Origin: an uncultured Candidatus Saccharibacteria bacterium
GTDB taxonomy: Bacteria; Patescibacteriota; Minisyncoccia; Phycocordibacterales; DAORIS01
DNA: 64,000 bases
Direction: 5' to 3'
NCBI GenBank assembly: GCA_964644035.1
Contig: CAZXUH010000001.1
Location: forward strand, 259,712-323,711
Each line of letters opens with the position of its first letter. Position 1 is the stretch's first letter. The notes beneath the pieces are model-generated. The model saw nothing but the letters and a program-made list of their open reading frames with translations, did not search any database and had not been told where the DNA came from. Below, piece by piece: positions 7,907 through 35,623 of the stretch. Both the position numbers and the translations under genes were made by a program.

Positions 7907-8770
7907 CTAGAGGGTGTACTTCTTCAAGACAGACAATGCTTCATTCCTATTCAACTTAATGTATTGGAACGCCGCACGTGGATTTTCTTCTGAATGTCCT
8001 AGTACAACCTGTAATTCTTTCACATCTGCACCATTCGCTAACATGGTGTGAGCTTTATAATGTCTGAAACTATGTGGTGTAAGCCTAGACAGTATACCGG
8101 CCTTTTTTCTCAATATCTCAATCCACCTTTCAACCGATCGTGGCGTGATTCTTTTTTTAATCCTGTAACTAATGAGAAGCGGATTCGTCTTTGTCAGGTT
8201 TTGCCTGATCTCAAGATATTTCAACAACATCTCATGTGTCTCTTTCCCCCACATTACATACCTCTCACTTCCATTTTTTTTCGTAACGACAACGCAATAA
8301 TTTTTGTCCTTATGAATATCGGAAATATTCAAGTCTGTGAGTTCGGAAACTCTCATGCCAGTATCTTTCATCATGTACAACGAAAGTTTTTTTAGAAGAT
8401 CATCATATGTCCAATCGTTAAGATATTTACACATTCTGTTTATATGATCTTCTTCTGCTACCGGCATTTTCTTTGGAAGGAACTTTGGAACCTTAATCAT
8501 GAAAGGATCGATCACTGTCTCCCCTTCTGACTTAAGGAACTTTATGAAGTCTCTGACAATGGTCACAATATACGAGACGTTTGACGGGGCGTACTTCGTG
8601 CGGATGCCGACTTGAAACTCCGACAGATTTGATAACCTTAGTTTTGCGACCTGAATGTCGCCAAAGTACTCTACGAGCTTTTTCAAGTTCGGTCGATACG
8701 AGTATGCTGCACGATTTGTATGGGCTGATTTCCATGTCAGATACTTCTCTATTGCGACAGTTAGTTGCAT
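7907..8770 (-). CDS. int: Phage tyrosine integrase/recombinase.
   Basis: C-terminal catalytic region 'HSFRHYKAHTMLANGADVKELQVVLGHSEENPRAAFQYIKL' carries the H-x-x-R, LGHS and catalytic Tyr pattern. It is adjacent to the left boundary repeat. Confidence 0.85.
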   Translation of the reverse strand: MQLTVAIEKYLTWKSAHTNRAAYSYRPNLKKLVEYFGDIQVAKLRLSNLSEFQVGIRTKYAPSNVSYIVTIVRDFIKFLKSEGETVIDPFMIKVPKFLPKKMPVAEEDHINRMCKYLNDWTYDDLLKKLSLYMMKDTGMRVSELTDLNISDIHKDKNYCVVVTKKNGSERYVMWGKETHEMLLKYLEIRQNLTKTNPLLISYRIKKRITPRSVERWIEILRKKAGILSRLTPHSFRHYKAHTMLANGADVKELQVVLGHSEENPRAAFQYIKLNRNEALSVLKKYTL

Positions 8771-10363: not shown

Positions 10364-11374
10364 CTACGAGTACAATTCTTTTAACTTTGCGGTTGTCTTT
10401 GGTCCGACTTGTCCTGTCTGTTCAAAGCCATACTTTTTCTGAAACTTTTTAACTGATTCAATAGTGATGCTTCCGTATACTCCACGACTTGTGACATTTG
10501 CTGGAAACACACCTTCATATGTAAGACAGTCTTGAAGTGATGCTGTGGAGCCTGTGTAGACTGGTTTAATATTTATGGGAGCCGCATCAAACTTGAAGTT
10601 GATTGGATACCTTGCGAGATAGCAACGGGCTTGGAAGAAATCACGATCGATAAGCTTCTGGTATATATTCTCCTGATCCGCTGAATCTTCGATCAAGATG
10701 TATTTCTTGTTGTCGTAGGTAAAAGCGTCGATAGCGGTAACATCATGTCCCCAAGGCTTATTTGTACCTGCAACTCTAGGATATTGAGTACCAAAGAACT
10801 CGTTTGGGCCGAACTGGAACCAAAGCTTGATCCCCTTCCCTGTCTTCTCAATAGTTGATGCGACAGTTTCAAAATCAATTGGCATCTCTACCCAATTTTC
10901 TGGAATAGCGAAAGCGTCTGCTGCATCTCTGTGGTATTGTTCGATTTTTGTTGAGTTGATCTGCGCCTCCGTCATACCTTCGCAAGGAAGCAGGTCGTAT
11001 AGAAGTGCTCCAGTGTTAGCAAGTCTGGCAATATCACTAAAAACCATACCTTCACTTGGTTTGTTAGCTCTCTGTGTGTAGAAAAATGCTGGAGAAAACT
11101 TAACAATTCTATCAGTCTTTAAGAAGTAAAGAATAGTGCATAGCTTTGATGTGCCATACGCAACACAAGCAGACGATGAGAATTGGTACTGGTATGGAAA
11201 CTTTCTCCACTGACTAGGTTGTTTTGCTTTAAACTCAGGTATGGAAGCAGATGCCACAGCTTCATTAAATTGGTGTACTGTAGATAGTTCCTCGCCCAAC
11301 CCTAAAACACCGAGAAATCTTTCTTTCTCTTTAGTCTTCGTTAAAAGATTTTTTATTGATTTAAATATATTCAT
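10364..11374 (-). CDS. Endolysin with a cysteine peptidase domain (CHAP/NlpC-P60/papain-like) and a C-terminal peptidoglycan-binding domain.
   Basis: Candidate nucleophile 'SSACVAYG' and His 'WGHDVTAID'. The C-terminal 'KKFQKKYGFEQTGQVGPKTTAKLKEL' matches the PG_binding_1 pattern. Next to a holin-like gene. Confidence 0.6.
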   Translation of the reverse strand: MNIFKSIKNLLTKTKEKERFLGVLGLGEELSTVHQFNEAVASASIPEFKAKQPSQWRKFPYQYQFSSSACVAYGTSKLCTILYFLKTDRIVKFSPAFFYTQRANKPSEGMVFSDIARLANTGALLYDLLPCEGMTEAQINSTKIEQYHRDAADAFAIPENWVEMPIDFETVASTIEKTGKGIKLWFQFGPNEFFGTQYPRVAGTNKPWGHDVTAIDAFTYDNKKYILIEDSADQENIYQKLIDRDFFQARCYLARYPINFKFDAAPINIKPVYTGSTASLQDCLTYEGVFPANVTSRGVYGSITIESVKKFQKKYGFEQTGQVGPKTTAKLKELYS

Positions 11375-11376
11375 AT

Positions 11377-11604
11377 TTATTGACTTAACCTACTTTTAAT
11401 CCACTGGAGGTCTGTTTGCATTTGACTTAGCTGAACTAGGATTTGAATATTTTGTGCAGTCTGTGCTTCTAATTTTGTTTCCAAAACTCCGGTCCGAACT
11501 TCAATATTTTTAATAGTGCTTTGAATGTTTGCCCATGCAGTAATAAAGGCGACCCCTAACGCTATTAATTGCCAATATTTTTGTAGAGATTTTACTTGTT
11601 CCAT
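11377..11604 (-). CDS. Holin/spanin-like small membrane protein.
   Basis: 75 aa with one TM segment followed by a coiled coil, immediately upstream of the endolysin. Confidence 0.4.
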   Translation of the reverse strand: MEQVKSLQKYWQLIALGVAFITAWANIQSTIKNIEVRTGVLETKLEAQTAQNIQILVQLSQMQTDLQWIKSRLSQ

Positions 11605-11605: not shown

Positions 11606-13828
11606 TTAAATACCTGTTGTGTCTATTAATATCCATGCTGAACCATTCCAATAATAGAGAGGCATTTCTTGCCAACCACTTGAAACCGGTGATGGTGATG
11701 AACTTGGTGATACTGAGGATGACGGCGAAACTGAGCTGCTAGGACTATGTGAAACTGATGAACTTACCGATGACGAAACTGATGTAGATGGTGACACCGA
11801 TGAACTTGGAGAATGACTTATTGAACTAGATACACTGGACGACGCCGAACTTGAGACAGAAGAAGAAATAGAAGTACTTGGGCTAGTGCTGCTCGAAACT
11901 GATGACGAGACACTTGAAGATACAGAGCCTGCGATCTGGTAGCAAACCTTCATTGAAATGGAATCCACTTGGACTGTACCTGCTGGGTTTGCGTAATCTA
12001 CATTGACCTCAACTCCCTCAATAACTGCATCAACTGGTATAGAGAAACCAAAGTCAGTCATTGCTAGGTACTTACCAGTTCCCATGTTTCCGATGATGCT
12101 CCATCCAAAACCGAAGTTGCTTGCATTTATATCAGCCGGTGTTAAAGAAAGACCCCATAATTCTGTTGGTCCCCCGTACACCCTAGGACTTCCAGCTCCT
12201 GAAATAGCTACACCTGTATGTAGACTTGTACCCGAAATACTTCCTCCTACTATTAATTTTGCGCTATTATCAGTTGTTGATCCTGAAGCCCTTACTGCAC
12301 ATGTAGTTGAGGTTGATCCATTATCAGTTTTTGCATCATTTGGATTCAACCAATCGATAGTTCCGACTGTTGCATCATTTGCGGCTACGTTAGGAAATTG
12401 AAAGTTTGTGCATACAGACACTACGGAAGATGGTGACGGACTTACACTACTCGATACGCTAGTCGATGGAGAAACTGAGGAACTTGTCGAACTGCTGACC
12501 GAAGATGAAGTTGAGCTTGATACCGACGTTGACGGACTTACTGATGAGGATACCGAAGACGAAACGGAAGAACTAACACTTGATGAAACTGAGGTCGAGG
12601 GACTTACTGATGAACTTACAGAAGAAGAAACTGATGATGACACCGACGATGAAACTGAACTTGAAACCGAGGTCGAGGCTGATCCTGCTGCATCATATGT
12701 TGCATAGATCGAGGCAGTAAATAAGTTTACACCCGCACTCATTACCCAAGGAGATTCGGGGCTAGCGTACGTGACACTGATGTCATAGTATTCTTGATCT
12801 GATGTATTGTCGTAACTTATGTAGTAGCCTCTTGTGCCTGAAATATCTGCGGGATCACCCTGAGCATTTAATATGTATTCAGTTGCATCCGAAAAAGCTT
12901 CTGAACCCATAATGAACGTTTTCCAACCAAGGGCTTCTGCTTGATCTAGTCCGGTTTGTGTTGCGATTTGTCCATGAGTTCCTGTACCACCAGAGTCCCT
13001 TTCATTCATGAAAACTTTAACGTCAACAGCAGTAGAGCCTGTATCACCCCCCAAATAAGCATCAATGGCTGTGAGAGTTCCTGCTTCTGTTGTGAGAAAT
13101 GATGTACCAAAGCGTTCGCTTTCAGCTACACCAAAGCGTTCTGCGATAGCAATTTGAAGCGCACCAATACTTGTGTATCCAAACGTAGGGTCAACTGTTA
13201 CCGGAAATACTGCTTCTTCTAGAAACTTTTGAGGTACAGTGACAGTGAGTAAATCTACATTCTCGTAAATATTCAAATCACACCATGTCCTATTCCCCTC
13301 TGCATCAACTGCCTCTGGTCTATATATATGAAAAGCTTTACCAGTTTTGTATTCTTTACCAGCAGAATTATTTATACGTCCTTTAGTTTTGTGATACACA
13401 GCATAAGAGCCAACAGTGTTCTCAGGCTGCTTGAATCGTTTGGAATCGATTTGTTCTTGAGTAAGTGGCGGCTGGTAGAAGAAATCAAGTCCTTTTGTAT
13501 TAATTGTTGCGGTTAGAACATTGTTTTCAGGTATTTGCTTGAGGACCCATTCAAACTCAAAACCACCATCTTCACCGGCTTCTGGCTTTTCGTACTGATG
13601 CACTTCGTAATCAGGCGTAATGTACTTAATTACCCCGTCAGTCTCCTCGATAGTTGCATCTGGATGTTCCTCTGCTCGAAGTGAAAAGTTTACCTCGTTG
13701 TCCCATCTTTGAATCTTTACTTGGGGTTTGAAATCAATCTGCTTGTCATCACCTATAATGATCTCAATTTTATCTTTGGGATTGGACTTTACCTCTTTTA
13801 GAAATGTTGTGTCGTTTAATTTATCCAT
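11606..13828 (-). CDS. Tail fiber/virion surface protein with two long serine-rich repeat tracts.
   Basis: 740 aa. The N-terminal globular domain is followed by (SSSVSSSVSPSTSV)n tracts in the middle and at the C-terminus, and it sits beside the LamG fiber gene. Confidence 0.55.
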   Translation of the reverse strand: MDKLNDTTFLKEVKSNPKDKIEIIIGDDKQIDFKPQVKIQRWDNEVNFSLRAEEHPDATIEETDGVIKYITPDYEVHQYEKPEAGEDGGFEFEWVLKQIPENNVLTATINTKGLDFFYQPPLTQEQIDSKRFKQPENTVGSYAVYHKTKGRINNSAGKEYKTGKAFHIYRPEAVDAEGNRTWCDLNIYENVDLLTVTVPQKFLEEAVFPVTVDPTFGYTSIGALQIAIAERFGVAESERFGTSFLTTEAGTLTAIDAYLGGDTGSTAVDVKVFMNERDSGGTGTHGQIATQTGLDQAEALGWKTFIMGSEAFSDATEYILNAQGDPADISGTRGYYISYDNTSDQEYYDISVTYASPESPWVMSAGVNLFTASIYATYDAAGSASTSVSSSVSSSVSSSVSSSVSSSVSPSTSVSSSVSSSVSSSVSSSVSPSTSVSSSTSSSVSSSTSSSVSPSTSVSSSVSPSPSSVVSVCTNFQFPNVAANDATVGTIDWLNPNDAKTDNGSTSTTCAVRASGSTTDNSAKLIVGGSISGTSLHTGVAISGAGSPRVYGGPTELWGLSLTPADINASNFGFGWSIIGNMGTGKYLAMTDFGFSIPVDAVIEGVEVNVDYANPAGTVQVDSISMKVCYQIAGSVSSSVSSSVSSSTSPSTSISSSVSSSASSSVSSSISHSPSSSVSPSTSVSSSVSSSVSHSPSSSVSPSSSVSPSSSPSPVSSGWQEMPLYYWNGSAWILIDTTGI
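11653..11905 (-). repeat. Coding tandem repeat (Ser/Val/Pro/Thr-rich tract, C-terminal) of the fiber gene.
   Basis: Nucleotide-level tandem repetition of Ser codons; likely slippage-prone. Confidence 0.6.
12418..12718 (-). repeat. Coding tandem repeat (central poly-Ser-Val tract) of the fiber gene.
   Basis: About 100 aa of SSSVSSS repeats; the antisense strand reads as an acidic DELTDE artefact ORF. Confidence 0.6.
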
Positions 13829-13829: not shown

Positions 13830-15437
13830 TTAGTCTAGGAAAACTTTTAGAGGTGCTTTGATCCAAGTCAATCCGTTAAATCGATAAAGAGTTCCGCCAT
13901 ATAGACTTGCTGACGGTGATGAGCTGGGTGAACCAGATATAGAAGAACTCACAGAGGTTGACGGACTCACTGAGCTACTTACAGAGCTGGAAACCGAACT
14001 TGAAATACTGGATGAAACCGAGGTTGAGGGTGACACAGATGAAGACACAGAACTGCTCACAGACGAGCTTACAGAGGTCGAGGGACTCACTGATGACGAT
14101 GGTGAATGACTTATACTGCTCGATACGCTCGTTGACGGACTTACTGAACTTGAAGGTGACGAGGAGATCGAGGAAGAAACGGACGTGCTCGGTGAAGATG
14201 AAACAGAAGAAGATATAGAAGTCGATGGAGAAACTGAGCTGCTCACTGATGAGCTAACCGAACTACTTACGGATGAACTTACCGAACTTGAAACTGATGT
14301 GCTTGGTGAAACTGACGAAGATGGAGAGCTGCTGATGGATGAAGATACTGACGTTGATGGGCTAACGCTCGAAGAAACCGAACTCGACACGGAGCTAGAT
14401 ACACTGGAAGAAACAGATGTTGATGGAGAGACAGATGATGAAACGCTGGACGATACCGAGGAACTTACCGAAGTTGAAGGGCTGACAGAACTACTTGGTG
14501 AACTTGATACCGACGAAGACACGGATGAAGACACCGAGCTGGACACTGAACTTGAGACAGACGACGAGACAGAGCTGCTAACGCTTGTTGAAGGTGAAAC
14601 GGAAGAACTAACACTTGATGAAACGCTCGTACTTGGAGAAACCGAGCTTGAAGGAGAGCTACTGACCGAAGATGAAACAGAAGTTGAAGGACTGACGCTT
14701 GAACTTGGCGAAGATGATACTGAGGATGAAGGCGAACTGCTTACCGATGAAACTGCAAGTGGATATGCTAGACCAGCACCACCATTATAAAGAGATGTAA
14801 CTTCCGCATCTGAAAGTTGTCTGCTCCATATACCTACTTCGTCGATGTATGCATTCGAAAATGCGGCCAGAACGTTGTCTGATCGATCAGCACCAACAAC
14901 AAAGTTGTTAAATGTTGTTCCACTCGTACCAGCACCTGAACTGGCTTGCGTTCCTCGATTGACACCATCTGTATAACCAGTAATAGTTGATCCGTCATAT
15001 GTCAGTACCAAATGATGCCAGCCTGCCGTTCCGAGCGTAATGTTGTATATAAAATTGTCTTGAGCGACACCCTTCTTCAAACGTGAGAAGAATAGACGAC
15101 GAGTACCACCATTATGCTGATAGATAATGTAATAACCGTTTTTATTCGTAACACTTTCTTGAAATATAAAAGTCTGTTGGCTGGCCGCAATTTCAGTTCG
15201 CATCTTGACCCAGAGCGACATAGACATTGCGCCTCCTGTAATACCCATGTTTGCAGCACGTGTGAGACTCTTGTTGGTATTAGCCGTGCCAAAGTCTGCA
15301 CCATTGTTTATAAGTGCGGCAGCAAAACCAACGGTGTTGTTGTTGGTTAGTGTGAGAGCTGCGCCGGAAGAATCGGCTGGGTTGCCGCTTGATTCGTCGA
15401 GCTTATAATATGCTAATAGGTTTGTTGTTAACGCCAC
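13830..15437 (-). CDS. Tail fiber/receptor-binding protein with an N-terminal LamG (concanavalin-A-like lectin) domain and a ~300-aa serine-rich repeat.
   Basis: The N-terminus 'LLAYYKLDESSGNPADSSG...LVLTYDGSTITGYTDG...IDEVGIWSRQLSDAEVTSLY' is the LamG pattern common in phage fibers. It is followed by (SSSVSSSVSPSTSV)n. Confidence 0.65.
   Translation of the reverse strand: MALTTNLLAYYKLDESSGNPADSSGAALTLTNNNTVGFAAALINNGADFGTANTNKSLTRAANMGITGGAMSMSLWVKMRTEIAASQQTFIFQESVTNKNGYYIIYQHNGGTRRLFFSRLKKGVAQDNFIYNITLGTAGWHHLVLTYDGSTITGYTDGVNRGTQASSGAGTSGTTFNNFVVGADRSDNVLAAFSNAYIDEVGIWSRQLSDAEVTSLYNGGAGLAYPLAVSSVSSSPSSSVSSSPSSSVSPSTSVSSSVSSSPSSSVSPSTSVSSSVSSSVSPSTSVSSSVSSSVSSSVSSSVSSSVSSSVSSSPSSSVSPSTSVSSSVSSSVSSSVSPSTSVSSSVSSSVSSSVSSSVSPSTSVSSSISSSPSSSVSPSTSVSSSVSSSVSSSVSSSVSSSVSPSTSISSSVSSSPSTSVSSSISSSPSSSVSPSTSVSSSISHSPSSSVSPSTSVSSSVSSSVSSSVSPSTSVSSSISSSVSSSVSSSVSPSTSVSSSISGSPSSSPSASLYGGTLYRFNGLTWIKAPLKVFLD
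13884..14765 (-). repeat. Coding tandem repeat (about 295 aa poly-Ser-Val-Pro-Thr) within the LamG fiber gene.
   Basis: Highly repetitive Ser codons; the antisense acidic ORF 14185–14790 is an artefact of this tract. Confidence 0.6.
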
Positions 15438-16357
15438 TTTTCTATCTCAGTTTCTGTCCATCCCGTAACTGGTGAAAACTTTTCTATGAGCCATGCCAGA
15501 GGATACTTTTGTAAACTCCAGCTTCTATCTTTAAATTGATTAAGGACTGTCTTCTTGGCGTGTTCTGTTTGTCGTCCTGATATTGGATATGGGAATCCAA
15601 AATCATTTGCTGCTTTTGTTCTGAACATGTGTGCGTACCAAGTCGTGTGATTGACTACTACCCTTCCTCCTGAGAGCCATGTCTTACATGCCACCTCTAT
15701 TCCTTGAGATCCCCAAGAACCAAGAGCCTCATCACAAATATTGAGTTCCCAATATTTTTCTCTGGTCATAAGAAAACAAGAACCTTGGATACTCATTGAA
15801 TCCGTGAGATCACCTCCATACCCTTCTCGTTTGGTGTACTCATTGAAATATTGGAAGTGTGGTTCACTATCAAAGCAAAATGAATTGCTTTCTGGCCTTC
15901 TCTTGGCAATCCACACAATGTCCTTAGTCATTATCTTTCCGCACTTGTCGCACTTAGAACCTTTGTCCTGATATTTCCTTTCTCCGCACTCACAGACCCA
16001 ATCAAAGGCGTGTAGGTTTCGCATTGTAGGAACCATAGTCCAATCGTCCTGCATCTTCTCGATCAACTTCCTATCAAAGCCCTTATCGAAAGCACAATGA
16101 GCGTCTACCTTCACCACATACTTTGCTTGTGAGAGTTTGCAGGCCAAATTGGTTGCTGCTCTCTGCCCAATACTTTCAGGAAGATAGATGACGTTTACTC
16201 TTTCATGTTGAGGGATAGCTGGATTAGCCCACTGCCCATCTAGAACAACGATTACTTCTGTATCTGCTTCAATATTGGATACAATATCCTCAATCGTTCT
16301 CGCTAAAAATTCCTCGTTGCGAGCAGGAATCAGAATACTTAAATCTCTTGCTGCCAT
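15428..16357 (-). CDS. Family 2 glycosyltransferase (GT-A) with a C-terminal Cys-rich (Zn-ribbon-like) region.
   Basis: N-terminal 'LSILIPARNEE...VIVVLDGQW' GT2 signature. Paralogous to 18120–18899 (both have the 'HC[AS]F[DG]KG[FY]DR' motif). C-terminal 'CECGER...CDKCGK'. Confidence 0.65.
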   Translation of the reverse strand: MAARDLSILIPARNEEFLARTIEDIVSNIEADTEVIVVLDGQWANPAIPQHERVNVIYLPESIGQRAATNLACKLSQAKYVVKVDAHCAFDKGFDRKLIEKMQDDWTMVPTMRNLHAFDWVCECGERKYQDKGSKCDKCGKIMTKDIVWIAKRRPESNSFCFDSEPHFQYFNEYTKREGYGGDLTDSMSIQGSCFLMTREKYWELNICDEALGSWGSQGIEVACKTWLSGGRVVVNHTTWYAHMFRTKAANDFGFPYPISGRQTEHAKKTVLNQFKDRSWSLQKYPLAWLIEKFSPVTGWTETEIEKWR

Positions 16358-16899
16358 TTTGTTACATCAACGAAGTTAGAAAGAACTGTTGTGTGCGGTG
16401 TAGCTCCGGTCCAGTCGTATCGATACTTGAACTGCGAGTAGAGTTGGTCATAACCGTACTTCTGCTTTCCGTTCACACCGGCGTCATGCAAAACCACGTA
16501 ATCAGCCTTATCTTTGAAAAGAAGGGCGTCATCTCCCCTTGTTCGGGGCTTCTTCGGTGTATGGTCGATAAAGACAATACTGTAGTGTTCATTCAAGTCA
16601 GCCTTCTCAAGTTCCTTAATGTGTAGGACTTTGTGACTGAGTGTCTTGAACTTATTTGCAAAATCTAAGTAATGAAGATGTCTTTCGACGGTGATGAGAC
16701 TTCTCTTGTTCTCAAAACACATCCAGTGCAAGAGGGGTGTACTGAACATTCCAGAACCGACTTCCATAATCGTCCCCGTAGTGTTCTGGACCAGTTTCAT
16801 GAGTATTGGAAAGTGCGTGGACGTTTCCATTTCCAAGCTTGTGTGCTTGTACTTCTCATTCTTCTGCTCCCTTGATTGAAATACTCTTTTTTTACTCAT
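16339..16899 (-). CDS. Class I SAM-dependent methyltransferase (Methyltransf_24/TylF-CmcI-like O-methyltransferase).
   Basis: 'IMEVGSGMFS' glycine-rich SAM motif, 'IVFIDHT' (DGDH-like) and 'VVLHDAG'. Paralogous pattern to 38956–39537. Confidence 0.5.
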   Translation of the reverse strand: MSKKRVFQSREQKNEKYKHTSLEMETSTHFPILMKLVQNTTGTIMEVGSGMFSTPLLHWMCFENKRSLITVERHLHYLDFANKFKTLSHKVLHIKELEKADLNEHYSIVFIDHTPKKPRTRGDDALLFKDKADYVVLHDAGVNGKQKYGYDQLYSQFKYRYDWTGATPHTTVLSNFVDVTKWQQEI

Positions 16900-17572
16900 A
16901 TTTTTTAATTAATTCCCTTGCATGTCCCCAGTGGTAAAGATCGTATGCTTTTATCTGTCCAAGCCTCTTTCGTTGCGTTCTTTGCCTGTCCTCAGAAGCA
17001 TTCTCATGATTGATTTGGATGATTGAAACTTCTCCAAAGACCTCTACTGATTTCCTTTCTGTAATATTTAAATTTCTTTCGATAATCCCCCGCCCTACTT
17101 CTCCAGTGAACTCATGAGGTGTACCGTTTGGCCATTTCTCGAATCTTTCTTCTAGGGCTTCGATCAGTAATTTCCTTGGAGCGATCAATGAGCAGTTACT
17201 CTTTCTGTTTCGCCATGAGTAGATGGGTTCTCCCCATGTAAATAGAGCAAAGCGATTCTGGTCATAGGCAAATTCATCTAAATTTGGCCTGTAGAAGTTG
17301 AAATGATTTTCATGATACAAACAATCATCTTCTGCTGTAGCAATGAACTCGGTCGTAGCTAATTTGGCGGCTCGTAGCATCTGACGGTAAATGTTTGACA
17401 TGCCTTTTTCTCCGTCATCTAATATGTTCTGTCCGAAATCCAATGGTTTACGAGAAACACTTATGAGTGGGTAATCTCCTATTGCTGAACTCAAGACTTC
17501 TCTCTGATAGGATGAGAACTTATCGGGCATCTGTGAGGCTGTCAGATAGATCACTGTTAAGTCTTTTGCCAT
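16892..17572 (-). CDS. Hypothetical protein within the glycosylation cassette (possible GT-like).
   Basis: 226 aa with an 'EDDCLYHENHF' acidic motif and no confident family assignment. Confidence 0.3.
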   Translation of the reverse strand: MAKDLTVIYLTASQMPDKFSSYQREVLSSAIGDYPLISVSRKPLDFGQNILDDGEKGMSNIYRQMLRAAKLATTEFIATAEDDCLYHENHFNFYRPNLDEFAYDQNRFALFTWGEPIYSWRNRKSNCSLIAPRKLLIEALEERFEKWPNGTPHEFTGEVGRGIIERNLNITERKSVEVFGEVSIIQINHENASEDRQRTQRKRLGQIKAYDLYHWGHARELIKKYE

Positions 17573-18168
17573 GTGGATACAATTAAGTCGTCCTCTAGAT
17601 ACGTTGCAAACTCTCTTGTTGAGACTGTTTCCTTACCATTTGAGAATCCATCAACCGATGCATTCCAAGCGTGCATACCTCCATATCTTTTCTTTTGATC
17701 TGGTGCATGTCTGAGATATACCCAGCCACCTTTTTTGCAAACTCTTTTCATCTCCTCGATCGCCTTCTGACAATCGGGAGTGTGATCGAGTGCGTTTACA
17801 CAATGAACTATGTCGAACGTTTCATCTGGATACGTGAGATTCTCCATATCCTGATATTCAATTGGAACCAGTGGAACTTTTCCGTTATTAACCCAGAATT
17901 TCTTATATTCATCTGAGAAGATGTCGGATGCGAATATGGTCACATCTACTCCTTCACAATGATCCCCGATCGTATTAACTGGACCAGCCCCTAACTCCGC
18001 TATCACCACTTTTTTCTTGTCTCCAATTAAATATTTAAAATACTTTGGTAGTGGTGCTGGTTTGTTAAACTCTCTTTCTTTTGAACCGAACTTAACCCTG
18101 TAAAAAAACGTTGTTTTATTTATATCCGCCATTTTGGTCGTATTTCTTTCTCGTAATAGTCCCCCCAC
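17557..18168 (-). CDS. Class I SAM-dependent methyltransferase.
   Basis: Motif I 'VVIAELGAGPV' and motif 'FDIVHCVNALDH' typical of Methyltransf_11/23-like enzymes. Confidence 0.6.
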   Translation of the reverse strand: MGGLLRERNTTKMADINKTTFFYRVKFGSKEREFNKPAPLPKYFKYLIGDKKKVVIAELGAGPVNTIGDHCEGVDVTIFASDIFSDEYKKFWVNNGKVPLVPIEYQDMENLTYPDETFDIVHCVNALDHTPDCQKAIEEMKRVCKKGGWVYLRHAPDQKKRYGGMHAWNASVDGFSNGKETVSTREFATYLEDDLIVSTWQKT

Positions 18169-18899
18169 AATTCAAGTGAATACTTCCAGCCCGGCTCTGC
18201 TTCCTTCGTGCCGTAGTTGTGGGTTCGTGGAAAGTCCCTGTGCTTGTGGGCGTGCCATGTATTCTTGTTGACCATGAGCCTGCCTCCTGCTTTCCATGTC
18301 TTGAAGACCATCTCATGCGAATCACCGTAATGAGTGCCGTAGCCTTCGGATTGCAGCTCTACGATCACTTTGTCCCACCACGAACGCTTCATGATCCAGC
18401 AGGAACCCTGCATAGCCATTGTTTCGTCAATCATTTTGTCTGCCCTTTGCTTGGCTCTGCTTTTCCAATCAACACCCGAGAACTTGTTTCTCGAAGTGTC
18501 TATGACTAGCTTGTTGTAATCGTTTGGAGGTAAATCCATTACTTCCCATTTGTCCACATCCAAGAAGTAGCGGCGTGGCGTGACAATCCAGTTGTCCTTA
18601 AACCTTTCTGTCAAAATACGATCGTAGCCTTTACCGAATGAGCAATGCTCGTCAGTACGCATTATGAACTGTCCCTTTGAGACAGACACACCGGCATTGA
18701 TTGCTCCTCTCATACCCCTTGTCTTTCCAAGGTGTAAAACTTTTACTCTTGGATCATCAATGGGACCAGTCCAGTACCCATCAAGAACACAGATAATTTC
18801 CAGTTGATCCTTTGGTAGTTCAGAGTTTTCTAAAAGCGATTCAACTGTATTCTTAAGGAGTGGGTCCTTGAAACTTGGAATAATGACGCTTAATAGCAT
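18120..18899 (-). CDS. Family 2 glycosyltransferase (paralog of 15428–16357).
   Basis: 'LLSVIIPSFKD...ICVLDGYW' GT2 N-terminus and a shared 'HCSFGKGYDR' block. Confidence 0.65.
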   Translation of the reverse strand: MLLSVIIPSFKDPLLKNTVESLLENSELPKDQLEIICVLDGYWTGPIDDPRVKVLHLGKTRGMRGAINAGVSVSKGQFIMRTDEHCSFGKGYDRILTERFKDNWIVTPRRYFLDVDKWEVMDLPPNDYNKLVIDTSRNKFSGVDWKSRAKQRADKMIDETMAMQGSCWIMKRSWWDKVIVELQSEGYGTHYGDSHEMVFKTWKAGGRLMVNKNTWHAHKHRDFPRTHNYGTKEAEPGWKYSLELWGDYYEKEIRPKWRI

Positions 18900-20472: not shown

Positions 20473-23181
20473 TTATCTAAATAACTTCTTCTTGTCGTCA
20501 AAAGTGATCGATTCGTCCTTGTTGTGAATATAGTAAGAAGCACCATTCGTAATATCTTTAAATGTCTGCGAACCCAATTCAGCAAGTAACTTCTTAGTGA
20601 TGGCTTCTATCTCCTCAGCTTTCTTACCTCCCTTACCAGCCATGTATATATTATATTGCTTACCAGCATAGGCTTGGTATTGGTTCTTTTCACTAAGAAT
20701 CTGAGCAAGGGTTCGTTTGGTTCCCCTCTTTGAATGTTCCCTGATTCGGTTGAGAGCTGTGCCAAGAATGACACGTGCTTCCAATTCCTTCTTCTCTGTT
20801 GGACGATTACTAATTTCACCGTAGAGAATAGGTAGGAGAATATCCAAATCAGACTGAGTTATTTTAAGGTCCTGATCTTTGTATTTAGTTTGGACTACTG
20901 TGTTCTTTGGAAGGTCTACCTTCTTTGATCCTGTAGCTTGGATAGGTACTTCTGCCTGAGGTTTAGCTGGAAGGGTTTGAGGAGTACTTTCAGAAATCTT
21001 AGTGTCAGAAGCTGTGTACTTCTCCTTGCTTGGAAGCTGTGCAACTAAAGCTGCTGCACCCACTAGACCACCCGCACCCACAACAAACTTCTTAGAAGCT
21101 GAACCTTTCTGTAGGTTGACTTTATCTAGCTGTGATGGTATTTTATTTGGAACGCCACGTTCAGTATTACTAGGTAATTTATTATTTATGGAATTAGCAT
21201 TTTCTATAGCACTCGGAATATTATTGGTTCCAGTCTTGTTGCTTGTTATTGGTTTACTATTCAATATAGTCCTATCGCCTTTTGTGTTTGTAACTTGGCT
21301 TTTTGATAAGTTTATTGGTTTTTTAGCTTCAAGGCTTCCTAAAGCAGAGGCTCCTGTTGACGCAGAGGGTCCGGAAATAAACTCTTCTAATTTCTGAATC
21401 ATCTGTGTTTCAGGTAATTCTTTTTCTATTAACTCTTGAATCTTCTTTAGATTCTTTTCAAGAATAGCTTCTAGATCGAGTGCATTCATGGTTTTATAAC
21501 CCTGACCTCTAGGAATCATCTGTTCAACAAATCCTTTTATACCGCCACCAGTAATTTTATTAAGAATACTTGAGACGTTTCTACCTAATTTTTCGAATAG
21601 ACCCCTTTCAATTATCTTCTGTTGGAGATTATTTACACCTTCTTCTACCTTCTTAACAAGATCTCTGGTCCTAATGAGGTTTGATATTTCTTTGTCCGTA
21701 GCTTCATATATATCGTTTCCAAACAAATTACGAGCTGTACTCTTTAAACCTGCACGTGTATTTTCAAACGACTGGGCATTTACACTCGTAAACGGCTCAC
21801 CGGTCTTGCTGAAAGCTTTTGTACTAAACTCTGTGCCATGCAAACGAGCAAGATCATTCACTTCTTGAATAGTAATGCCGTTAGTTTTCGCATTATTCTT
21901 TAATTGATTTATTTTTGCTTGTCCAATCGGATCATTTGTCTTTTTATATAATTCCTCAAGTTGATTTATTGCATCATCAACATAATTATGTGAAACAACT
22001 TCCTCACCAACCTTTGTATCAAACTTTAGGTTATCAAGTAGTATTTTTTCCTTCTTAGTTGAAAGAACTTCATCAAGTTTTGTCTTTAATGTAGTAGCTT
22101 TATCGTTTAAAGCCTTTGTGAGGTCTTTATAGGTCTTTACACCATCAAAATCTATGTTTGATAATGCTTTCTTAGCACGAGGAATATCTGATATTTTTCC
22201 TTGAGTAATTTTTCCAACCAAATCATCAAATTGATTGACGGCTTTTGTAGCTCTCTTTTGCATCAAACTTGAAACTTTATTAGTACCCTCTGCAACAGCA
22301 GGGATAGCTACACCTGTTAGTGTCCCTAAGCCCGGAATAAGAGCTTTTTTACCAGTCCTGTCCTCACCTCTAGCACCTTGAAGTCCCTGCGCCACGTCAG
22401 ATGTGTAACCAATGGCTGCACCTCCTAATACCTTTTTAGCAGCACCTCCTTTACCACCAGCAATACTTGCGATTTTACCCAATTCCGGAGAGATAGCTGT
22501 AGCTGTTTTAATAACTGCACTACTCTTTTTGGGTATTACTTTGAAAGATTGAGCACCTTTTACAGCTTTTCCATAAGCTCCAGCCGTAAGAACATCTAGT
22601 GCAGTGCCACCAATTTCACCACCAACTTTTAAGTTTGATTTTTTAGTTGCAGATAAGTTCTCGTCAATAAATTTATTTACATCAAGTGATTCACCTGTGA
22701 GTTGGTTATATGCTTTTTCTAATCTTGAGGTATCCTTACCATTTTTTTTATTTTCCCTGATCCTTTTAATAAGATTCACTTTTATATCTTCCTGTCCCTG
22801 CTGAGCAGCAGAAAGTGCAGGAAGCGTATTCCTTGCAGCCAAAGACTCACCAATAGTTTTACCAAGTCCTACTTCCGATGATGCAATATTACCTACAAAT
22901 GCTTTACCGAAATTAGCAGCCATACCCCCAAAAGAGTTGGCTTTTTTAGATTCTTTTGCAGATGCTGCCGCTTCATTTTGAAGCTTTAATATCTTAGCTT
23001 TCCTATCCTCAGGCTGATTGTATTTAAATTCTTTAGACTCGATAGAAGCCTCTGGTTTCGTTCCATATTTAGCTTCGTACTCAGCACGTGTCATCTGGAT
23101 CGGCTCTGATTTCACAGGCTGAATAGGCGGAGGTGTTCCGTATTTAGCCTCGTATTCTGCTCTCGTCATTTGTATAGCCAT
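20473..23181 (-). CDS. Large internal virion/tape-measure-like protein with a C-terminal cell-wall hydrolase (SleB/Hydrolase_2-like) domain.
   Basis: 902 aa, Lys/Ala-rich with a central Gly-rich hydrophobic segment. The N-terminal motif 'IQMTRAEYEAKYGT' is duplicated. The C-terminal 'ELEARVILGTALNRIREH...QYQAYAGKQY' resembles the EARGE...VIxNR...QF pattern of SleB-type hydrolases. Positionally analogous to T7 gp16. Confidence 0.4.
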   Translation of the reverse strand: MAIQMTRAEYEAKYGTPPPIQPVKSEPIQMTRAEYEAKYGTKPEASIESKEFKYNQPEDRKAKILKLQNEAAASAKESKKANSFGGMAANFGKAFVGNIASSEVGLGKTIGESLAARNTLPALSAAQQGQEDIKVNLIKRIRENKKNGKDTSRLEKAYNQLTGESLDVNKFIDENLSATKKSNLKVGGEIGGTALDVLTAGAYGKAVKGAQSFKVIPKKSSAVIKTATAISPELGKIASIAGGKGGAAKKVLGGAAIGYTSDVAQGLQGARGEDRTGKKALIPGLGTLTGVAIPAVAEGTNKVSSLMQKRATKAVNQFDDLVGKITQGKISDIPRAKKALSNIDFDGVKTYKDLTKALNDKATTLKTKLDEVLSTKKEKILLDNLKFDTKVGEEVVSHNYVDDAINQLEELYKKTNDPIGQAKINQLKNNAKTNGITIQEVNDLARLHGTEFSTKAFSKTGEPFTSVNAQSFENTRAGLKSTARNLFGNDIYEATDKEISNLIRTRDLVKKVEEGVNNLQQKIIERGLFEKLGRNVSSILNKITGGGIKGFVEQMIPRGQGYKTMNALDLEAILEKNLKKIQELIEKELPETQMIQKLEEFISGPSASTGASALGSLEAKKPINLSKSQVTNTKGDRTILNSKPITSNKTGTNNIPSAIENANSINNKLPSNTERGVPNKIPSQLDKVNLQKGSASKKFVVGAGGLVGAAALVAQLPSKEKYTASDTKISESTPQTLPAKPQAEVPIQATGSKKVDLPKNTVVQTKYKDQDLKITQSDLDILLPILYGEISNRPTEKKELEARVILGTALNRIREHSKRGTKRTLAQILSEKNQYQAYAGKQYNIYMAGKGGKKAEEIEAITKKLLAELGSQTFKDITNGASYYIHNKDESITFDDKKKLFR

Positions 23182-24690
23182 TTAGTCGGTGATGATTATC
23201 TCTTGACCGTCAGGAGCTGTGATTACTTGCGAACCATCTATATTACTTGGTGATCCCCCGGGATTGTATCCACCACCAACATAACCTGTATCAATTCCAA
23301 ATTTCTGTGCATAACTTACTGCCCTTGATTTTTCCTCATCTATAGAAGCTTGGGCTTTCTTTGCGAATGTATTACCCAAATTAACAAACTCATTCAATGA
23401 AGCTGGTGTCAAACCTGCTCCACCTTGCATGATTCTCTGTGCCTTTCCTTCTAGTTGAGCAAGGAATGACTGGCCTTCTGGAGAACGTGCATATTCTGAT
23501 TCTCTAACAACTGATGTTGGGTCAAGAATCTTGTTGAAGTTAGTGATAACTACTTGGGAAGTTGCATTTAAATCTTTTACCTCACCACGGTTATATCGGT
23601 CTAATGCTTGTTGAGCAAGACTAGCTCGATTAACTACCTCTTTACTTGCCTTGACTAAGTTATCCACTTTCGCACCTAATGTAAGACCCCCCTGAAACTG
23701 CTGATAGGGTGTAAGACCACCTGCTCCGGCTCCCGCAACTTTTGCTTTTCTATTTGCATCTTCATTTTGGTATTCAGTAAACGAACCTGTGTATCCATTT
23801 TGTTTTGCAAACTCGTATTCCTCGGCAGAAGCTGGAATCTTTGGGTTACCACTTGCAATCAAATTTCCTTTTGAGTCGTAACGATTTTGACCTTCTGAAA
23901 GCGCAAATCCGTTATCAATATCTTCTGCATCCTTTGCTCGCTTTGCGGTCAAATATGAAGTCTTAATATCCCCTTCTGATACTCCGTATGATGTAGCGAT
24001 CTTTTGAAGTTCACTTGGGTCAATGTCCTCAGGTGAAAGACCTTGTAATAGAAGTGCTTGGCCAAGTTCCGTGAGCTTTCCTTGTTTTCTCTCCTTTGAT
24101 GAAGTGAGGAATTTAATATATGAATCAGCACCTTCTTGTTTAGCTTTAGTTTTGGCAGCAATTTCATCTACTGATGCTTGGTCCGCTTTTCCCAAGATAG
24201 CTGAAATAGTAGCCATCTGTTGATCCCTAATGCTGTTTGTAATATCTGTATTGTATGCAGTGACCTTATCAGTCTGAGCTGCACCGAAGTCTGATCCCAA
24301 AAGACCGCCACGGGCTTGTGAAGCACGGGAAGTACCAAGTCGGCCTTGTCCTTGAAACGCTGCCTCAGCAATTTTATCAGCATATACTCTATTAGTTGCA
24401 TCAATTTCAGCCTGAAAACGTCCAAGTGTTGCTCGTCTAATGTTGTCTTCGTTTACGTCTGAGTTCGCAAGTCCTTCGTAGTACGAACCAATTTTATTTA
24501 ACGAAGCATCCCCTGCATCCGGAGTTGGGGCCTGAAATGGTTTATACATCTCACCAACTGTAGGGTTAGTCGGAGATGCCACTGGTGTAGATGTTGGGTC
24601 ACCAATCTTTTGACCAGTGTTCATGTTGTAAATAGATTGCTGATCCCCCGGCCGTAGAAGCTTTCCTGTATTGTAGTCGTATCTATCCAT
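23182..24690 (-). CDS. Virion structural protein (internal core or tail protein).
   Basis: 502 aa within the structural module; no motif assignment. Confidence 0.35.
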   Translation of the reverse strand: MDRYDYNTGKLLRPGDQQSIYNMNTGQKIGDPTSTPVASPTNPTVGEMYKPFQAPTPDAGDASLNKIGSYYEGLANSDVNEDNIRRATLGRFQAEIDATNRVYADKIAEAAFQGQGRLGTSRASQARGGLLGSDFGAAQTDKVTAYNTDITNSIRDQQMATISAILGKADQASVDEIAAKTKAKQEGADSYIKFLTSSKERKQGKLTELGQALLLQGLSPEDIDPSELQKIATSYGVSEGDIKTSYLTAKRAKDAEDIDNGFALSEGQNRYDSKGNLIASGNPKIPASAEEYEFAKQNGYTGSFTEYQNEDANRKAKVAGAGAGGLTPYQQFQGGLTLGAKVDNLVKASKEVVNRASLAQQALDRYNRGEVKDLNATSQVVITNFNKILDPTSVVRESEYARSPEGQSFLAQLEGKAQRIMQGGAGLTPASLNEFVNLGNTFAKKAQASIDEEKSRAVSYAQKFGIDTGYVGGGYNPGGSPSNIDGSQVITAPDGQEIIITD

Positions 24691-26234
24691 TAGATTTTGA
24701 TGATGTAGTTAAGAACAAGGAAAGGATTCATGACATTCATAGCTGCGTTACCTCCTTTTGAACTTGGATTAGCAGAAGCAGCATCGTTAGTACTTGAGAG
24801 TGCAACAGAGCCTGAGTTGAATGTACCTGTAGCACCATGCGTGTGAGCCAAAAGTTCTGTAACAGACATGGCATGATTTTCTTCACCACCAGTTGTACCA
24901 GCCGTTCGAGCTGTGAGTGTGAGAGTGAATGTTTGTGTACCTGTGCCATCACTTGAAAGTGAGATGACTGTACCGTTTTGAGCGTTTGCTAGAGATGTAG
25001 CAAGTGAGAACGTTAAGTTACTTACACGAACAACATAGTAAGTTGTGTTGTCTGTGAGACCTGTCATAGCACCAGATGGAGCTGCATAGAGCACCGCCTG
25101 ACCAGTCTGAAATTCATTGTTTGCAGCATTTGAAAGACCGGTAACTGTAATGACGTTTGAGGAACGTGATGCAAATGTTGCAACCTTAGTAGGTGCTGTA
25201 CCTGCACCAAGAACCGATCGTGATCGGAGATCAGGAAGATTGAACGTTGTTGAGCCGTTACCTACTCCGTATGTAGTGCTTGTAACAGCAAAGAGTGCAG
25301 CGTAAGTTGTTCTTGAAACTGCCGAGCCATCACAGAGTAGAAAGCCCGTTGGAGCTGCTGAACCTGCGTAAGGAATTACGATACCTGTAAGAGCCGTGTA
25401 GTTTGTAAGAAAATCCTTTTCTAGTTTTGTAGGCCAATAGATTTCCTGAGGTGTGAACTTGATTGTTGTTGTATTGACTGCGACACCAAGAAAGACAGTA
25501 TTTGTGCCACCGCTTGTGACTACAGCTCCTGCTGTGTTTGATAGGAAGTACTTAGTACCAGCACTTAGTCCTGAAAAGTTTGCTGCAAGACCGGAAAGGA
25601 GAATGGTTACTCCTGCACCACCTGCGGCTGTGCCTTGTGCAACACCGAGTTGGACCTGATCAAAAGTAGCTGAGAGATCAGCGTCAGCTTTCCACCAACG
25701 TTGATCCGATTCTTTAAAATAGACAATGTTACCGGCAACAAGTGATTCACCTGCTGTGGCTGAGATTGTTTGAGATGAGAAAGAGACTGCGCCGCCATTA
25801 ACAACTGACAAAACGTAGGCCACGGTAGCAACTTGTTTAGGATCAGTCAGTGTTGGGGCTGTGTCATATGAAAGAGGAGTAGTACCATCGAGTGTACCTG
25901 TCCCTCGAAGTATGTCAGCCAAGTATCGAATATGTGCGAAATCAGTAAGAGTTACCTTTGCGCCAATTTTATGTAGTCGAGCAGCACCAGTAGTCTCAAC
26001 TCCCTGTCTAGAAATAGACTTAAGATCAGTAAGAGCAGTACTTGTAAGTTGGCAAGAGAAATGTTCTCTGCGACCGTTATCACGATCAACAGTAAAAAAG
26101 TAGCGGCCTGTTGGAAGGGCTACTCCATCATCGTCTGTTGCTGATTGTAGGGTTGCTGTTGTATCCCCTACATTGATTTTCGTAGCCAATGCTGTCTGAA
26201 AATCTGCTACTACCGTACCGAGTTGAGTTGACAC
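24690..26234 (-). CDS. Virion structural protein, fiber/spike-like (Thr/Gly/Ser/Ala-rich β-rich composition).
   Basis: 514 aa, the first gene after promoter copy 3; composition typical of fibers and tailspikes. Confidence 0.35.
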   Translation of the reverse strand: MSTQLGTVVADFQTALATKINVGDTTATLQSATDDDGVALPTGRYFFTVDRDNGRREHFSCQLTSTALTDLKSISRQGVETTGAARLHKIGAKVTLTDFAHIRYLADILRGTGTLDGTTPLSYDTAPTLTDPKQVATVAYVLSVVNGGAVSFSSQTISATAGESLVAGNIVYFKESDQRWWKADADLSATFDQVQLGVAQGTAAGGAGVTILLSGLAANFSGLSAGTKYFLSNTAGAVVTSGGTNTVFLGVAVNTTTIKFTPQEIYWPTKLEKDFLTNYTALTGIVIPYAGSAAPTGFLLCDGSAVSRTTYAALFAVTSTTYGVGNGSTTFNLPDLRSRSVLGAGTAPTKVATFASRSSNVITVTGLSNAANNEFQTGQAVLYAAPSGAMTGLTDNTTYYVVRVSNLTFSLATSLANAQNGTVISLSSDGTGTQTFTLTLTARTAGTTGGEENHAMSVTELLAHTHGATGTFNSGSVALSSTNDAASANPSSKGGNAAMNVMNPFLVLNYIIKI

Positions 26235-35265: not shown

Positions 35266-35615
35266 AATGCAAGCTTGCGCATATCCTCCAAGTGCTTCTC
35301 AGTCGCTTCAAGTTTCCCTTCAAGATAGCCTTGTTTTGGTTTGATACCAATATTATTAAGAGCATCAGCAAATACTTGTAATTGATCTAGTGTCAATTCA
35401 AGCGTTGGTTTTGATACCGCCACACCACGATGAACAGTCTCGCCGTCAAGAAACTCTACCTTTTCACCTATCTCACGAAATATGTACACATCTTTAGTGA
35501 GTTTGTACCCACTGTCTACAATTTTTATGTTCCATTCATTATTGTTCATATTGTGCTGGTACTGAGAATTGAACTCAGTCTCACTGTTTGGAAAACAGTA
35601 GTGCTGCCGTAACAC
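35262..35615 (-). CDS. Hypothetical protein.
   Basis: 117-aa ORF overlapping the terL start. Confidence 0.3.
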   Translation of the reverse strand: MLRQHYCFPNSETEFNSQYQHNMNNNEWNIKIVDSGYKLTKDVYIFREIGEKVEFLDGETVHRGVAVSKPTLELTLDQLQVFADALNNIGIKPKQGYLEGKLEATEKHLEDMRKLAL

Positions 35616-35623
35616 TTCACCAA

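Follow-up and report, generated by a model that had tools for sequence, protein, structure and literature searches.

We analyzed a stretch of 64,000 nt from an uncultured Candidatus Saccharibacteria bacterium (hereafter the window, to which coordinates refer unless another locus is named), which carries a cassette of glycosyltransferase and methyltransferase genes (15428-18899) that we examined as a candidate system for the glycosylation of phage fibre proteins. The cassette comprises five consecutive minus-strand open reading frames (ORFs), neighbours overlapping, and lies inside a prophage of ~42 kb (about 7.9-50 kb of the window; Table 1). A preliminary description, made from the letters of the window, had placed five such genes between the gene of a collagen-like fibre protein and two genes of fibre proteins with long serine-rich (poly-Ser) tracts, and had recognized a pair of family 2 glycosyltransferases among them. 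All of these were indeed found at these positions: the 309-aa protein (GT2-A) and the 259-aa protein (GT2-B) both contain a Glycos_transf_2 domain and are paralogues (28% identity, E 3e-34), and the fibre proteins carry poly-Ser tracts of 282, 89 and 83 residues.

The gene encoding the collagen-like protein is the first large gene of a tightly packed block that runs into the cassette, with a gap of 7 nt to the GT2-B gene, and on to the gene of an endolysin-like protein (10364-11374). The intergenic spacing remains between -49 and +7 nt all along this block: the stop codon of GT2-A overlaps the start of the fibre-1 gene by 10 nt, and the gaps around the genes of a 75-aa protein and the endolysin are 1-2 nt. 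This is the layout of one late operon, and the holin-candidate and endolysin genes at its end mark the block as a late structural/lysis module. A site resembling a promoter (20107-20078) and, on the minus strand, one resembling a terminator (10327-10305) bracket the block; in the promoter and terminator scans such sites were no commoner than in shuffled sequence.

Table 1. Genes of the cassette, of the late block and of the surrounding prophage, with the basis of each assignment.
Feature	Position	Strand	Basis
Integrase	7907-8770		prophage gene
75-aa protein (one hydrophobic segment, possibly holin) and 336-aa endolysin-like protein	10364-11604	-	PG_binding_1 2.2e-9, endolysin PHROGs
Fibre protein 2, two poly-Ser tracts, 740 aa	11606-13828	-	sequence
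Fibre protein 1, LamG and poly-Ser, 535 aa	13830-15437	-	Laminin_G_3 1.6e-21
GT2-A, soluble GT27-like glycosyltransferase, 309 aa	15428-16357	-	PF00535 Glycos_transf_2 5.6e-15
ORF2, conserved 186-aa protein, possibly class-I-like methyltransferase	16339-16899	-	weak signals
ORF3, predicted third glycosyltransferase, GT-A fold, 226 aa	16892-17572	-	AlphaFold2 model and Foldseek
Class I SAM-dependent methyltransferase, 203 aa	17557-18168	-	Methyltransf_11 3.3e-14
GT2-B, soluble GT-A glycosyltransferase, GT27-like, 259 aa	18120-18899	-	PF00535 Glycos_transf_2 3.5e-14
Collagen-repeat fibre-like protein, 231 aa	18907-19602	-	PF01391 Collagen 3.2e-12; tail-fibre PHROGs down to 4e-23
Tail-collar protein	24690-26234		prophage gene
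TerL	33787-35265		prophage gene

Enzymes encoded by the cassette

The best-scoring sequence matches of both GT2 proteins within the PDB are polypeptide GalNAc-transferases (ppGalNAc-Ts; E ~1e-6 for GT2-A and ~1e-5 for GT2-B), which make up 15 of the 22 listed matches of GT2-A and 8 of the 10 of GT2-B. A profile built from 34 GT2-A homologues retrieved ppGalNAc-T1 at 3.4e-8, and in the corresponding alignment the profile stretches vkvDAHCaf and sWGsqGiE...WlsGG...aHlFR are found opposite LDAHCE (the DxH motif) and iWGGENLE...WQCGG...GHVFR of GalNAc-T1, respectively. In GT2-A the DxH motif is D85-A-H87 and the Gal/GalNAc-T-like motif reads W215-G-S-Q-G-I-E221 ... S229-G-G231 ... H243-M-F-R, which includes the downstream His ligand; D85-A-H87, W215, G216, E221, G230, G231, H243, F245 and R246 are invariant in the 34 sequences. 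In the GT2-B family, at least 95% of 96 sequences retain D83 and H85 (DxH = D83-E-H85), Q164-G-S166, G205-G206 and H218. The structural comparison, made for GT2-A only, was based on an AlphaFold2 model (pLDDT 84, pTM 0.87): the top 50 Foldseek matches in the PDB are all ppGalNAc-Ts (E 2.6e-16 to 7.5e-13), namely GalNAc-T1/2/3/4/7/10/12 or PGANT9, with query-normalised TM scores of 0.55-0.71. These comparisons show computationally that GT2-A and GT2-B are soluble GT-A enzymes that bear the catalytic signature of the ppGalNAc-Ts: the DxH motif, the Gal/GalNAc-T motif and the third His ligand. The preliminary description had also reported a C-terminal Zn-ribbon for the GT2 enzyme; the Cys cluster of the 309-aa protein (C122, C124, C136 and C139) is in fact internal and constitutes an insertion that is absent from GT2-B. 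A two-step pathway, with one GT2 enzyme for priming and the other for extension, had been suggested there as well and found no support.

Database searches yielded 4925 homologues of GT2-A (E ≤ 0.001), the best 120 of which are 64-79% identical to it. The homologues derive from genome bins of the Candidate Phyla Radiation (CPR; Paceibacteria, Woese-, Levy-, Collier-, Andersen-, Zambryski-, Saccharibacteria and others) and from IMG/VR contigs of mostly 38-50 kb, and the habitats represented are groundwater, soil and wastewater metagenomes. The only lead of mycobacteriophage type in a search of BFVD was a glycosyltransferase of a Gordonia phage at rank 38, and the GT2 domain of GalT1 (5hea) is a weak PDB match to the N-terminal half of GT2-A. 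For comparison, the surroundings of GT2-A homologues were collected from IMG/VR and CPR genomes, 148 loci in all, and their ORFs were called anew and compared by BLAST.

Neither transmembrane (TM) nor other hydrophobic segments were found in the five cassette proteins, and three or more such segments occur in none of the 1084 ORFs within the cassette spans of 149 loci, as against 41 of the 1501 ORFs outside the cassettes. The absence of multi-TM ORFs from the cassette spans means that they encode no GtrA/GtrC, flippase, polymerase or polyprenyl-phosphate glycosyltransferase. The constellation that according to the preliminary description would have spoken against fibre glycosylation, a GtrB-like enzyme with GtrA/GtrC partners, was thus not encountered. 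With the Gtr modules that temperate phages carry for O-antigen conversion the cassette shares a prophage-borne enzyme with a GT2 domain and a weak PHROG match, the only GtrB-like one (E 1e-3), which covers just the generic N-terminal nucleotide-binding part; the genes here are located inside a late structural operon and the TM parts are missing. A Gtr module was ruled out because the C-terminal TM helices of GtrB, the GtrA flippase and the membrane glycosyltransferase GtrC are all absent.

The 226-aa ORF3, listed as unknown in the preliminary description, could be placed by its structural model. No match was obtained in Pfam or among the PDB sequences, also when family profiles were used as query. 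Its AlphaFold2 model (pLDDT 95.4) retrieved exclusively nucleotide-sugar enzymes with a GT-A fold among the top 50 Foldseek matches in the PDB, nearly all of them glycosyltransferases (SpsA, WrtF, TarP and others; best E 2e-6), and the residues E81 and D83 (AEDD) are invariant at the position of the DxD motif. Judged by this modelled fold, ORF3 is a further GT-A glycosyltransferase. An hhalign comparison of ORF3 with GT2-A gave a weak, in-register match of the N-terminal parts (probability 10.8%), and in BLAST single-linkage clustering ORF3, GT2-A and GT2-B join one cluster of 729 ORFs from 149 loci, with a median of five glycosyltransferases per locus. About 85 GT2-A homologues, each of 510-650 aa, continue at the C-terminus into an ORF3-type domain, a fusion that provides a Rosetta-stone link between the two proteins, separately encoded in the window. 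Examples of the fusion are found in L007 (10001-11611), L090 (10004-11629) and L091 (9998-11734), and in protein P0024.

The class I methyltransferase that had been described for the cassette was recovered as the 203-aa protein, which matches Methyltransf_11 with 53.7 bits (cut-off 21.2) and exceeds the cut-offs of Methyltransf_25, _31, _23 and Ubie_methyltran as well; an ATG 12 codons downstream of the annotated GTG may be its true start. The gene is present in only 11 of the 149 loci and therefore represents an accessory module. The 186-aa ORF2, with a family that extends over 81 loci and an ExGxG motif at E46/G48/G50, had been assigned as TylF/CmcI-like, an assignment that could not be upheld: the Pfam scan of the window protein returned no match, PF13578 (Methyltransf_24) included, and the methyltransferase-like signals are weak. 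Scans of 23 family members gave single Pfam matches to RrnaAD (0.018) and Methyltransf_3 (0.23), the match to a PHROG methyltransferase has an E of 0.007, the hhalign match with the neighbouring Methyltransf_11 protein is collinear yet weak (probability 1.5%), and the family profile found no usable match in Pfam or the PDB sequences. By these sequence signals ORF2 is possibly a class-I-like methyltransferase. Genuine Methyltransf_24 genes do occur, as separate genes, in the cassette of one relative.

Poly-Ser proteins and their association with the cassette

Fibre protein 1 consists of an N-terminal LamG/ConA-like domain, which by itself matches a PHROG of virion structural proteins (7.9e-14), the poly-Ser tract of 282 residues (residues 230-511; 13905-14750; 67% Ser) and a C-terminal tail of the type YxFNGxxW; neither a signal-peptide-like N-terminus nor a TM segment was found in it. 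Fibre protein 2 has two tracts (61-66% Ser) between globular domains, at about residues 383-471 (12416-12682) and at residues 635-717 (11678-11926), and ends with the tail YYWNGSAW. The first of these tracts was computed as residues 373-471 and its start was trimmed to about 383 to remove non-repeat lead-in residues. In 8 other loci, poly-Ser ORFs beside the cassette contain homologues of the N-terminal domain of fibre protein 2.

The poly-Ser frame is the coding frame; it runs in frame into non-repetitive domains, uses all six Ser codons and is not accompanied by a tandem DNA repeat (none was found in the tracts with TRF). The use of the Ser codons in fibre protein 1 is fairly even (TCA 58, TCT 40, AGT 34, AGC 31, TCG 30, TCC 16), which in the absence of a DNA repeat suggests that selection favours the protein repeat and acts against recombinogenic repeats in the DNA. 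The plus strand opposite the tract contains an acidic ORF (14185-14790), which is an antisense shadow. In public gene calls such acidic, E/D/L/T-rich ORFs opposite the tracts take the place of the long poly-Ser ORFs, as seen for the one just mentioned and for L001 (4162-4587, -), L004 (12825-13481, -) and L269 (5389-5940 and 11883-12497, -). Poly-Ser fibre genes are thus systematically called on the wrong strand in public records and many of them are probably missing from, or wrong in, the protein databases.

Short conserved tails that follow the poly-Ser tracts were observed in the window (11606-11680 and 13830-13900) and in L009, L010, L015, L019, L041, L081, L096 and L116. Tails of the YWNGSxW type are often present in 2-3 copies; elsewhere the tails take the form of KTVNGLxxxSIKTVNGLxW, of (T/N)KYxxxGNxYTDKY repeats or of a DSDNxxxxDTDFxLT...CRVYQL module. 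Such tails may be docking or receptor-binding tips.

To describe the association over the comparative set, a poly-Ser tract was defined as at least 50% Ser over 40 residues. The tracts recovered across the loci are composed of 52% Ser, 17.5% Pro, 7% Ala and 7% Val, range from about 80 to more than 2000 residues, and CPR genomes contain some giant poly-Ser ORFs (up to 2615 aa). Of 154 poly-Ser ORFs, none has an N-terminus that resembles a signal peptide, as expected for proteins that are modified and assembled in the cytoplasm. Of the 98 loci with at least 3 kb of downstream sequence, 82 have a poly-Ser ORF on the same strand that starts no more than 8 kb downstream of GT2-A (median gap 320 nt), and 166 poly-Ser ORFs are encoded on the cassette strand versus 4 on the opposite strand. 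When only fully covered loci were considered (cassette plus at least 3 kb upstream and at least 6 kb downstream), 39 out of 41 had at least one poly-Ser ORF on the cassette strand. In 18 of 82 loci a small protein with a poly-Ser tail is encoded directly upstream of GT2-B, so that the tracts flank the cassette on both sides.

The association survives a complete turnover of the phage backbone: neither the major capsid protein (MCP), portal and TerL of the window nor the MCP of L001 had a BLAST match in other cassette loci, by which the MCP failed as a lineage marker, and GT2-A nevertheless remains 48-69% identical across the loci. In L001 and L269 the cassette is located between an SU10-type MCP and the lysis genes, and in several relatives it follows directly after the MCP gene. 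The cassettes of relatives enclose additional genes, encoding: epimerase/dehydratase, NTP-transferase, UDP-Glc dehydrogenase, GHMP kinase with SIS, DegT aminotransferase, a TOD1/MUCI70-like glycosyltransferase, Methyltransf_24 and a sulfotransferase-like protein. Small ORFs resembling HNH/NUMOD3 homing endonucleases were observed between GT2-A and the fibre gene in L012 (2801-3289) and in about 10 other loci.

The association was also approached from the side of the tracts. As there is no tandem repeat at the DNA level, an exact search for repeat units was impossible and IMG/VR was scanned instead with a degenerate codon pattern for SPSxSPSxSPS, which detects 45 of the 148 known loci; most of the 120 IMG/VR stretches selected are chance matches (98 lack a poly-Ser ORF). 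Among these pattern-selected stretches a member of the glycosyltransferase family was present in 5 out of 7 with a tract of at least 190 aa and in 2 out of the 113 others (Fisher p = 2.2e-6). Of the two long-tract stretches that lack the family, one is truncated immediately upstream of the poly-Ser ORF.

Interpretation and comparison with known systems

The preliminary description had proposed a glycosylation of the fibres. That proposal is favoured by the synteny (39/41), the GT27-like signature, the lack of membrane partners, the reverse test and the lack of signal peptides, and we consider it probable (roughly 0.6) that the cassette is a phage-encoded cytoplasmic O-glycosylation system with the poly-Ser (Ser/Pro-rich) tracts of the phage's own fibres as substrates. 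In the mechanism that we propose, for which we infer acceptor and donor sugar, the order in which GT2-A and GT2-B act, the target of methylation and the location in the virion, one or both GT27-like enzymes would late in infection move the first sugar from a nucleotide sugar onto Ser hydroxyls of the tracts, a transfer that by analogy would be Mn2+-dependent and retaining. ORF3-type GT-A enzymes would then extend the glycan and the methyltransferase(s) would O-methylate the sugars. The product could be a mucin-like 'bottle-brush' stalk, extended, hydrophilic and protease-resistant, which would hold the LamG and other globular domains off the virion. The scaffold formed by GT2-B and GT2-A in the relatives encloses variable nucleotide-sugar genes, so that each phage would make its own glycan.

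Several known systems can be compared with the cassette. The polypeptide GalNAc-transferases of family GT27, which in animals and Toxoplasma initiate mucin-type O-glycosylation, come closest to GT2-A in both sequence and structure and to GT2-B in sequence. With the two phage enzymes they share the GT-A domain, the DxH motif, the Gal/GalNAc-T motif (WGxxxxE...W-x-x-GG...H-x-F-R) and the third His ligand, and the presumed phage substrates, dense Ser/Pro-rich tracts, are akin to the PTS (Pro/Thr/Ser) domains of mucins. In contrast, the phage enzymes are cytoplasmic instead of Golgi enzymes, GT2-A has the additional Cys-cluster insertion, and the phage tracts are rich in Ser rather than Thr. Moreover, the type II membrane anchor and the ricin-type lectin domain are absent from both phage enzymes (PF00535 is their only Pfam match and they contain no TM segment), and they should for that reason be regarded as GT27-like catalytic domains and not as canonical members of the family.

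Virion glycosylation has reportedly been described for the mycobacteriophages Che8, Corndog and Myrna by Freeman et al. (2023) in Cell Host Microbe. According to PMC12619734, which cites Freeman et al. 2023, mycobacteriophage glycosyltransferases glycosylate the phage's own structural proteins, namely capsid and tail-tube subunits. The likeness with the present system lies in phage-encoded soluble glycosyltransferases that are encoded within or next to the structural genes and act in the host cytoplasm on (here: predicted) structural proteins of the phage itself, and small proteins with C-terminal poly-Ser tails adjoin the MCP gene in some of the relatives. The hosts of the mycobacteriophages, however, are Actinobacteria and not CPR bacteria, their glycosyltransferases have no detectable homology to GT2-A (tblastn against 50,697 phage records, E 1e-3), and their substrates are short C-terminal extensions, whereas here the tracts comprise 80 to more than 2000 residues within fibre-like proteins.

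The serine-rich-repeat protein (SRRP) adhesins of Gram-positive bacteria, with GtfA/GtfB, GalT1 and accessory Sec, resemble the system in that several glycosyltransferases encoded adjacent to the substrate O-glycosylate hundreds of Ser residues in the cytoplasm. They differ in that the GT-B enzymes GtfA/GtfB were not seen here (Pfam and structure: only GT2/GT-A), nor were substrate signal peptides or SecA2/SecY2/Asp genes (LPXTG was not searched for specifically), and in that their product is a cell-wall-anchored adhesin and not, as predicted here, a part of the virion. An SRRP/accessory-Sec system was set aside as there is no GT-B pair, no hydrophobic N-terminus in 154 poly-Ser ORFs and no Sec gene in the block. 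Chlorovirus PBCV-1 encodes cytoplasmic glycosyltransferases, including A064R with glycosyltransferase and methyltransferase domains, that provide its major capsid protein with atypical N-linked glycans. The parallel with this virus is the use of its own soluble glycosyltransferases, sugar methyltransferase(s) and in part its own nucleotide-sugar synthesis for a structural protein, without host membrane pathways; PBCV-1 is a eukaryotic giant virus with unrelated substrates and homology was compared only at the level of the generic GT-A fold. Full-text literature searches retrieved no account of a pairing between poly-Ser phage fibres and GT27-like enzymes.

A number of observations weigh against fibre glycosylation. 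The identity of the two GT2 enzymes to ppGalNAc-Ts is only 13-18%, the lectin domain is absent, GT27-like motifs in a sequence do not prove a polypeptide acceptor, and blastn of the cassette as well as tblastn of GT2-A (E 1e-3) against the 50,697 INPHARED phage records gave no match. The globular parts of fibre protein 2 have no Pfam, PHROG or PDB match, and the presumed virion location of the fibre proteins follows from gene position and one PHROG match. Both exceptions among the 41 fully covered loci, L105 (500-11800, Woesebacteria) and L108 (5100-15500, Levybacteria), are large islands of glycosyltransferase and methyltransferase genes that include GT2-A and have no poly-Ser ORF in range. 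In the Andersenbacteria a 6-kb island of cassette and poly-Ser genes is located between tatA and tatC (L004, 7446-13650; same layout in L005, L006 and L089), containing genes for: a 199-aa protein, GT2-B, ORF3, ORF2, GT2-A, a sulfotransferase-like protein and a 687-aa poly-Ser protein. Housekeeping genes surround this island and no further phage gene lies within 10 kb of it, which makes a cellular role possible there; the island could be a prophage remnant, a satellite or a domesticated module. The synteny itself could in part result from a shared insertion hot spot, for fibre genes and 'moron' cargo often end structural modules. The reverse test included only 7 loci with long tracts, yet it argues against plain coincidence. 

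The alternative explanations can be weighed against the same observations. Glycosyltransferases, LamG proteins and nucleotide-sugar genes of CPR phages have been interpreted in the groundwater-virome literature as host-surface auxiliary metabolic genes (PMC11310336, PMC12911398), which counts against fibre glycosylation and would imply that the enzymes alter the S-layer, pili or cell-wall glycans of the host for attachment or to block superinfection, with the poly-Ser fibres as unrelated neighbours. Integration of the element as a prophage, the cassette island in Andersenbacteria chromosomes and the weak GtrB-like match agree with such a role. We nevertheless consider it unlikely: no GtrA/GtrC, flippase, polymerase or other multi-TM protein is encoded among the cassette ORFs, the cassette is translationally coupled to the fibre and lysis genes on the late strand and is no separately transcribed moron, the tight synteny with poly-Ser ORFs works in both directions, and the GT27-like signature indicates a polypeptide acceptor. 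Bacterial glycoside hydrolases include poly-Ser linkers without known glycosylation, a point in favour of coincidental neighbours, in which case the tracts would be flexible linkers and the glycosyltransferases would act on another part of the virion (capsid, tail tube) or on a small molecule, both having gathered in the variable region that ends the structural module. The position directly after the MCP gene in several relatives and the nature of the glycosylated mycobacteriophage proteins, capsid and tail-tube subunits according to PMC12619734, would fit as well. Such a coincidence also has little probability in our view, given that the association outlasts the complete turnover of the structural genes, holds in the reverse test and extends to the small poly-Ser-tail proteins just upstream of GT2-B.

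The poly-Ser proteins might also be glycosylated without being part of the virion, as adhesins or matrix proteins that are released at lysis or displayed on the cell like the serine-rich-repeat adhesins. LamG/ConA-like domains are typical of adhesion, the Andersenbacteria island pairs the cassette with a poly-Ser protein without a surrounding phage, and giant poly-Ser ORFs occur in CPR genomes. The lack of signal-peptide-like N-termini, the fact that Pfam of the flanking genes in the window revealed no partner of accessory Sec or sortase type, the position of the genes in the tail-fibre slot between tail and lysis genes and the match of the LamG domain to a virion-structural PHROG make this rather improbable. 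A modification of the phage DNA against restriction, for which the glycosylation of DNA by phage glycosyltransferases offers a well-known precedent (cited in PMC12619734), appears very improbable: the cassette is situated in the late structural/lysis block and not in the replication module, the sole confirmed methyltransferase is of the Methyltransf_11 type with no match to a DNA methyltransferase family, the structure and sequence neighbours are polypeptide glycosyltransferases, and the loci have about 5 glycosyltransferases each, with amino-sugar and heptose-type genes in the relatives.

If fibre glycosylation is correct, virion glycosylation would be a widespread trait of CPR-infecting phages, given the thousands of GT2-A homologues, and would be carried out with a different enzyme family, comprising the closest prokaryotic-virus relatives of the GalNAc-transferases that initiate animal mucin glycosylation, on a different kind of substrate, very long poly-Ser stalks, and in a new host clade. 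To our knowledge, a few actinobacteriophages are so far the only phages with demonstrated virion glycosylation by phage-encoded enzymes. Genes that were counted as host-surface auxiliary metabolic genes in several virome studies would then need re-annotation, the cassette would represent a compact, soluble and membrane-independent toolkit for dense Ser O-glycosylation, and the finding would bear on how phages of ultra-small episymbiotic bacteria recognize their hosts or hide. A broader generalization, to which we give slightly less than even odds, is that phages of CPR/Patescibacteria make 'phage mucins', the Ser/Pro tracts of fibre and head-associated proteins, hundreds to thousands of residues long, being densely O-glycosylated in the cytoplasm by soluble GT27 homologues, with a modular cassette (about 5 glycosyltransferases, sugar-nucleotide enzymes, methyl- and possibly sulfotransferases) that is swapped among otherwise unrelated phages; the reported glycosyltransferase and LamG auxiliary metabolic genes would in that case be virion-building genes, and GT27-type initiation of mucin-type glycosylation would have a large prokaryotic/viral branch that had gone unrecognized.

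Surroundings of the cassette

Besides the genes given in Table 1, an SU10-type adaptor and an SU10-type portal were identified in the prophage, which is flanked by host housekeeping genes (FtsW, MurG and GluRS on one side; S41 peptidase, CysRS and DnaB on the other). Two large proteins, of 902 aa (20473-23181, -) and 502 aa (23182-24690, -), are encoded upstream of the fibre block; the former has no family match and the latter one weak match to a PHROG of unknown function. Relatives of the 502-aa tail-region protein were sought in IMG/VR as a control set of the same lineage with and without the cassette, and none was found. Public viral collections contain little that represents the phage backbone of the window. 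Two tRNA genes, for tRNA-Gly(tcc) and tRNA-Asp(gtc) (35553-35624 and 35828-35900; both -), adjoin the terminase gene on its upstream side, and the prophage has no tRNA-Ser gene although the fibres are rich in Ser. On the host side, a 665-aa protein with CBM_4_9 and Big_7 domains (61779-63776, -), unrelated to the cassette, probably binds carbohydrates at the surface of the CPR host.

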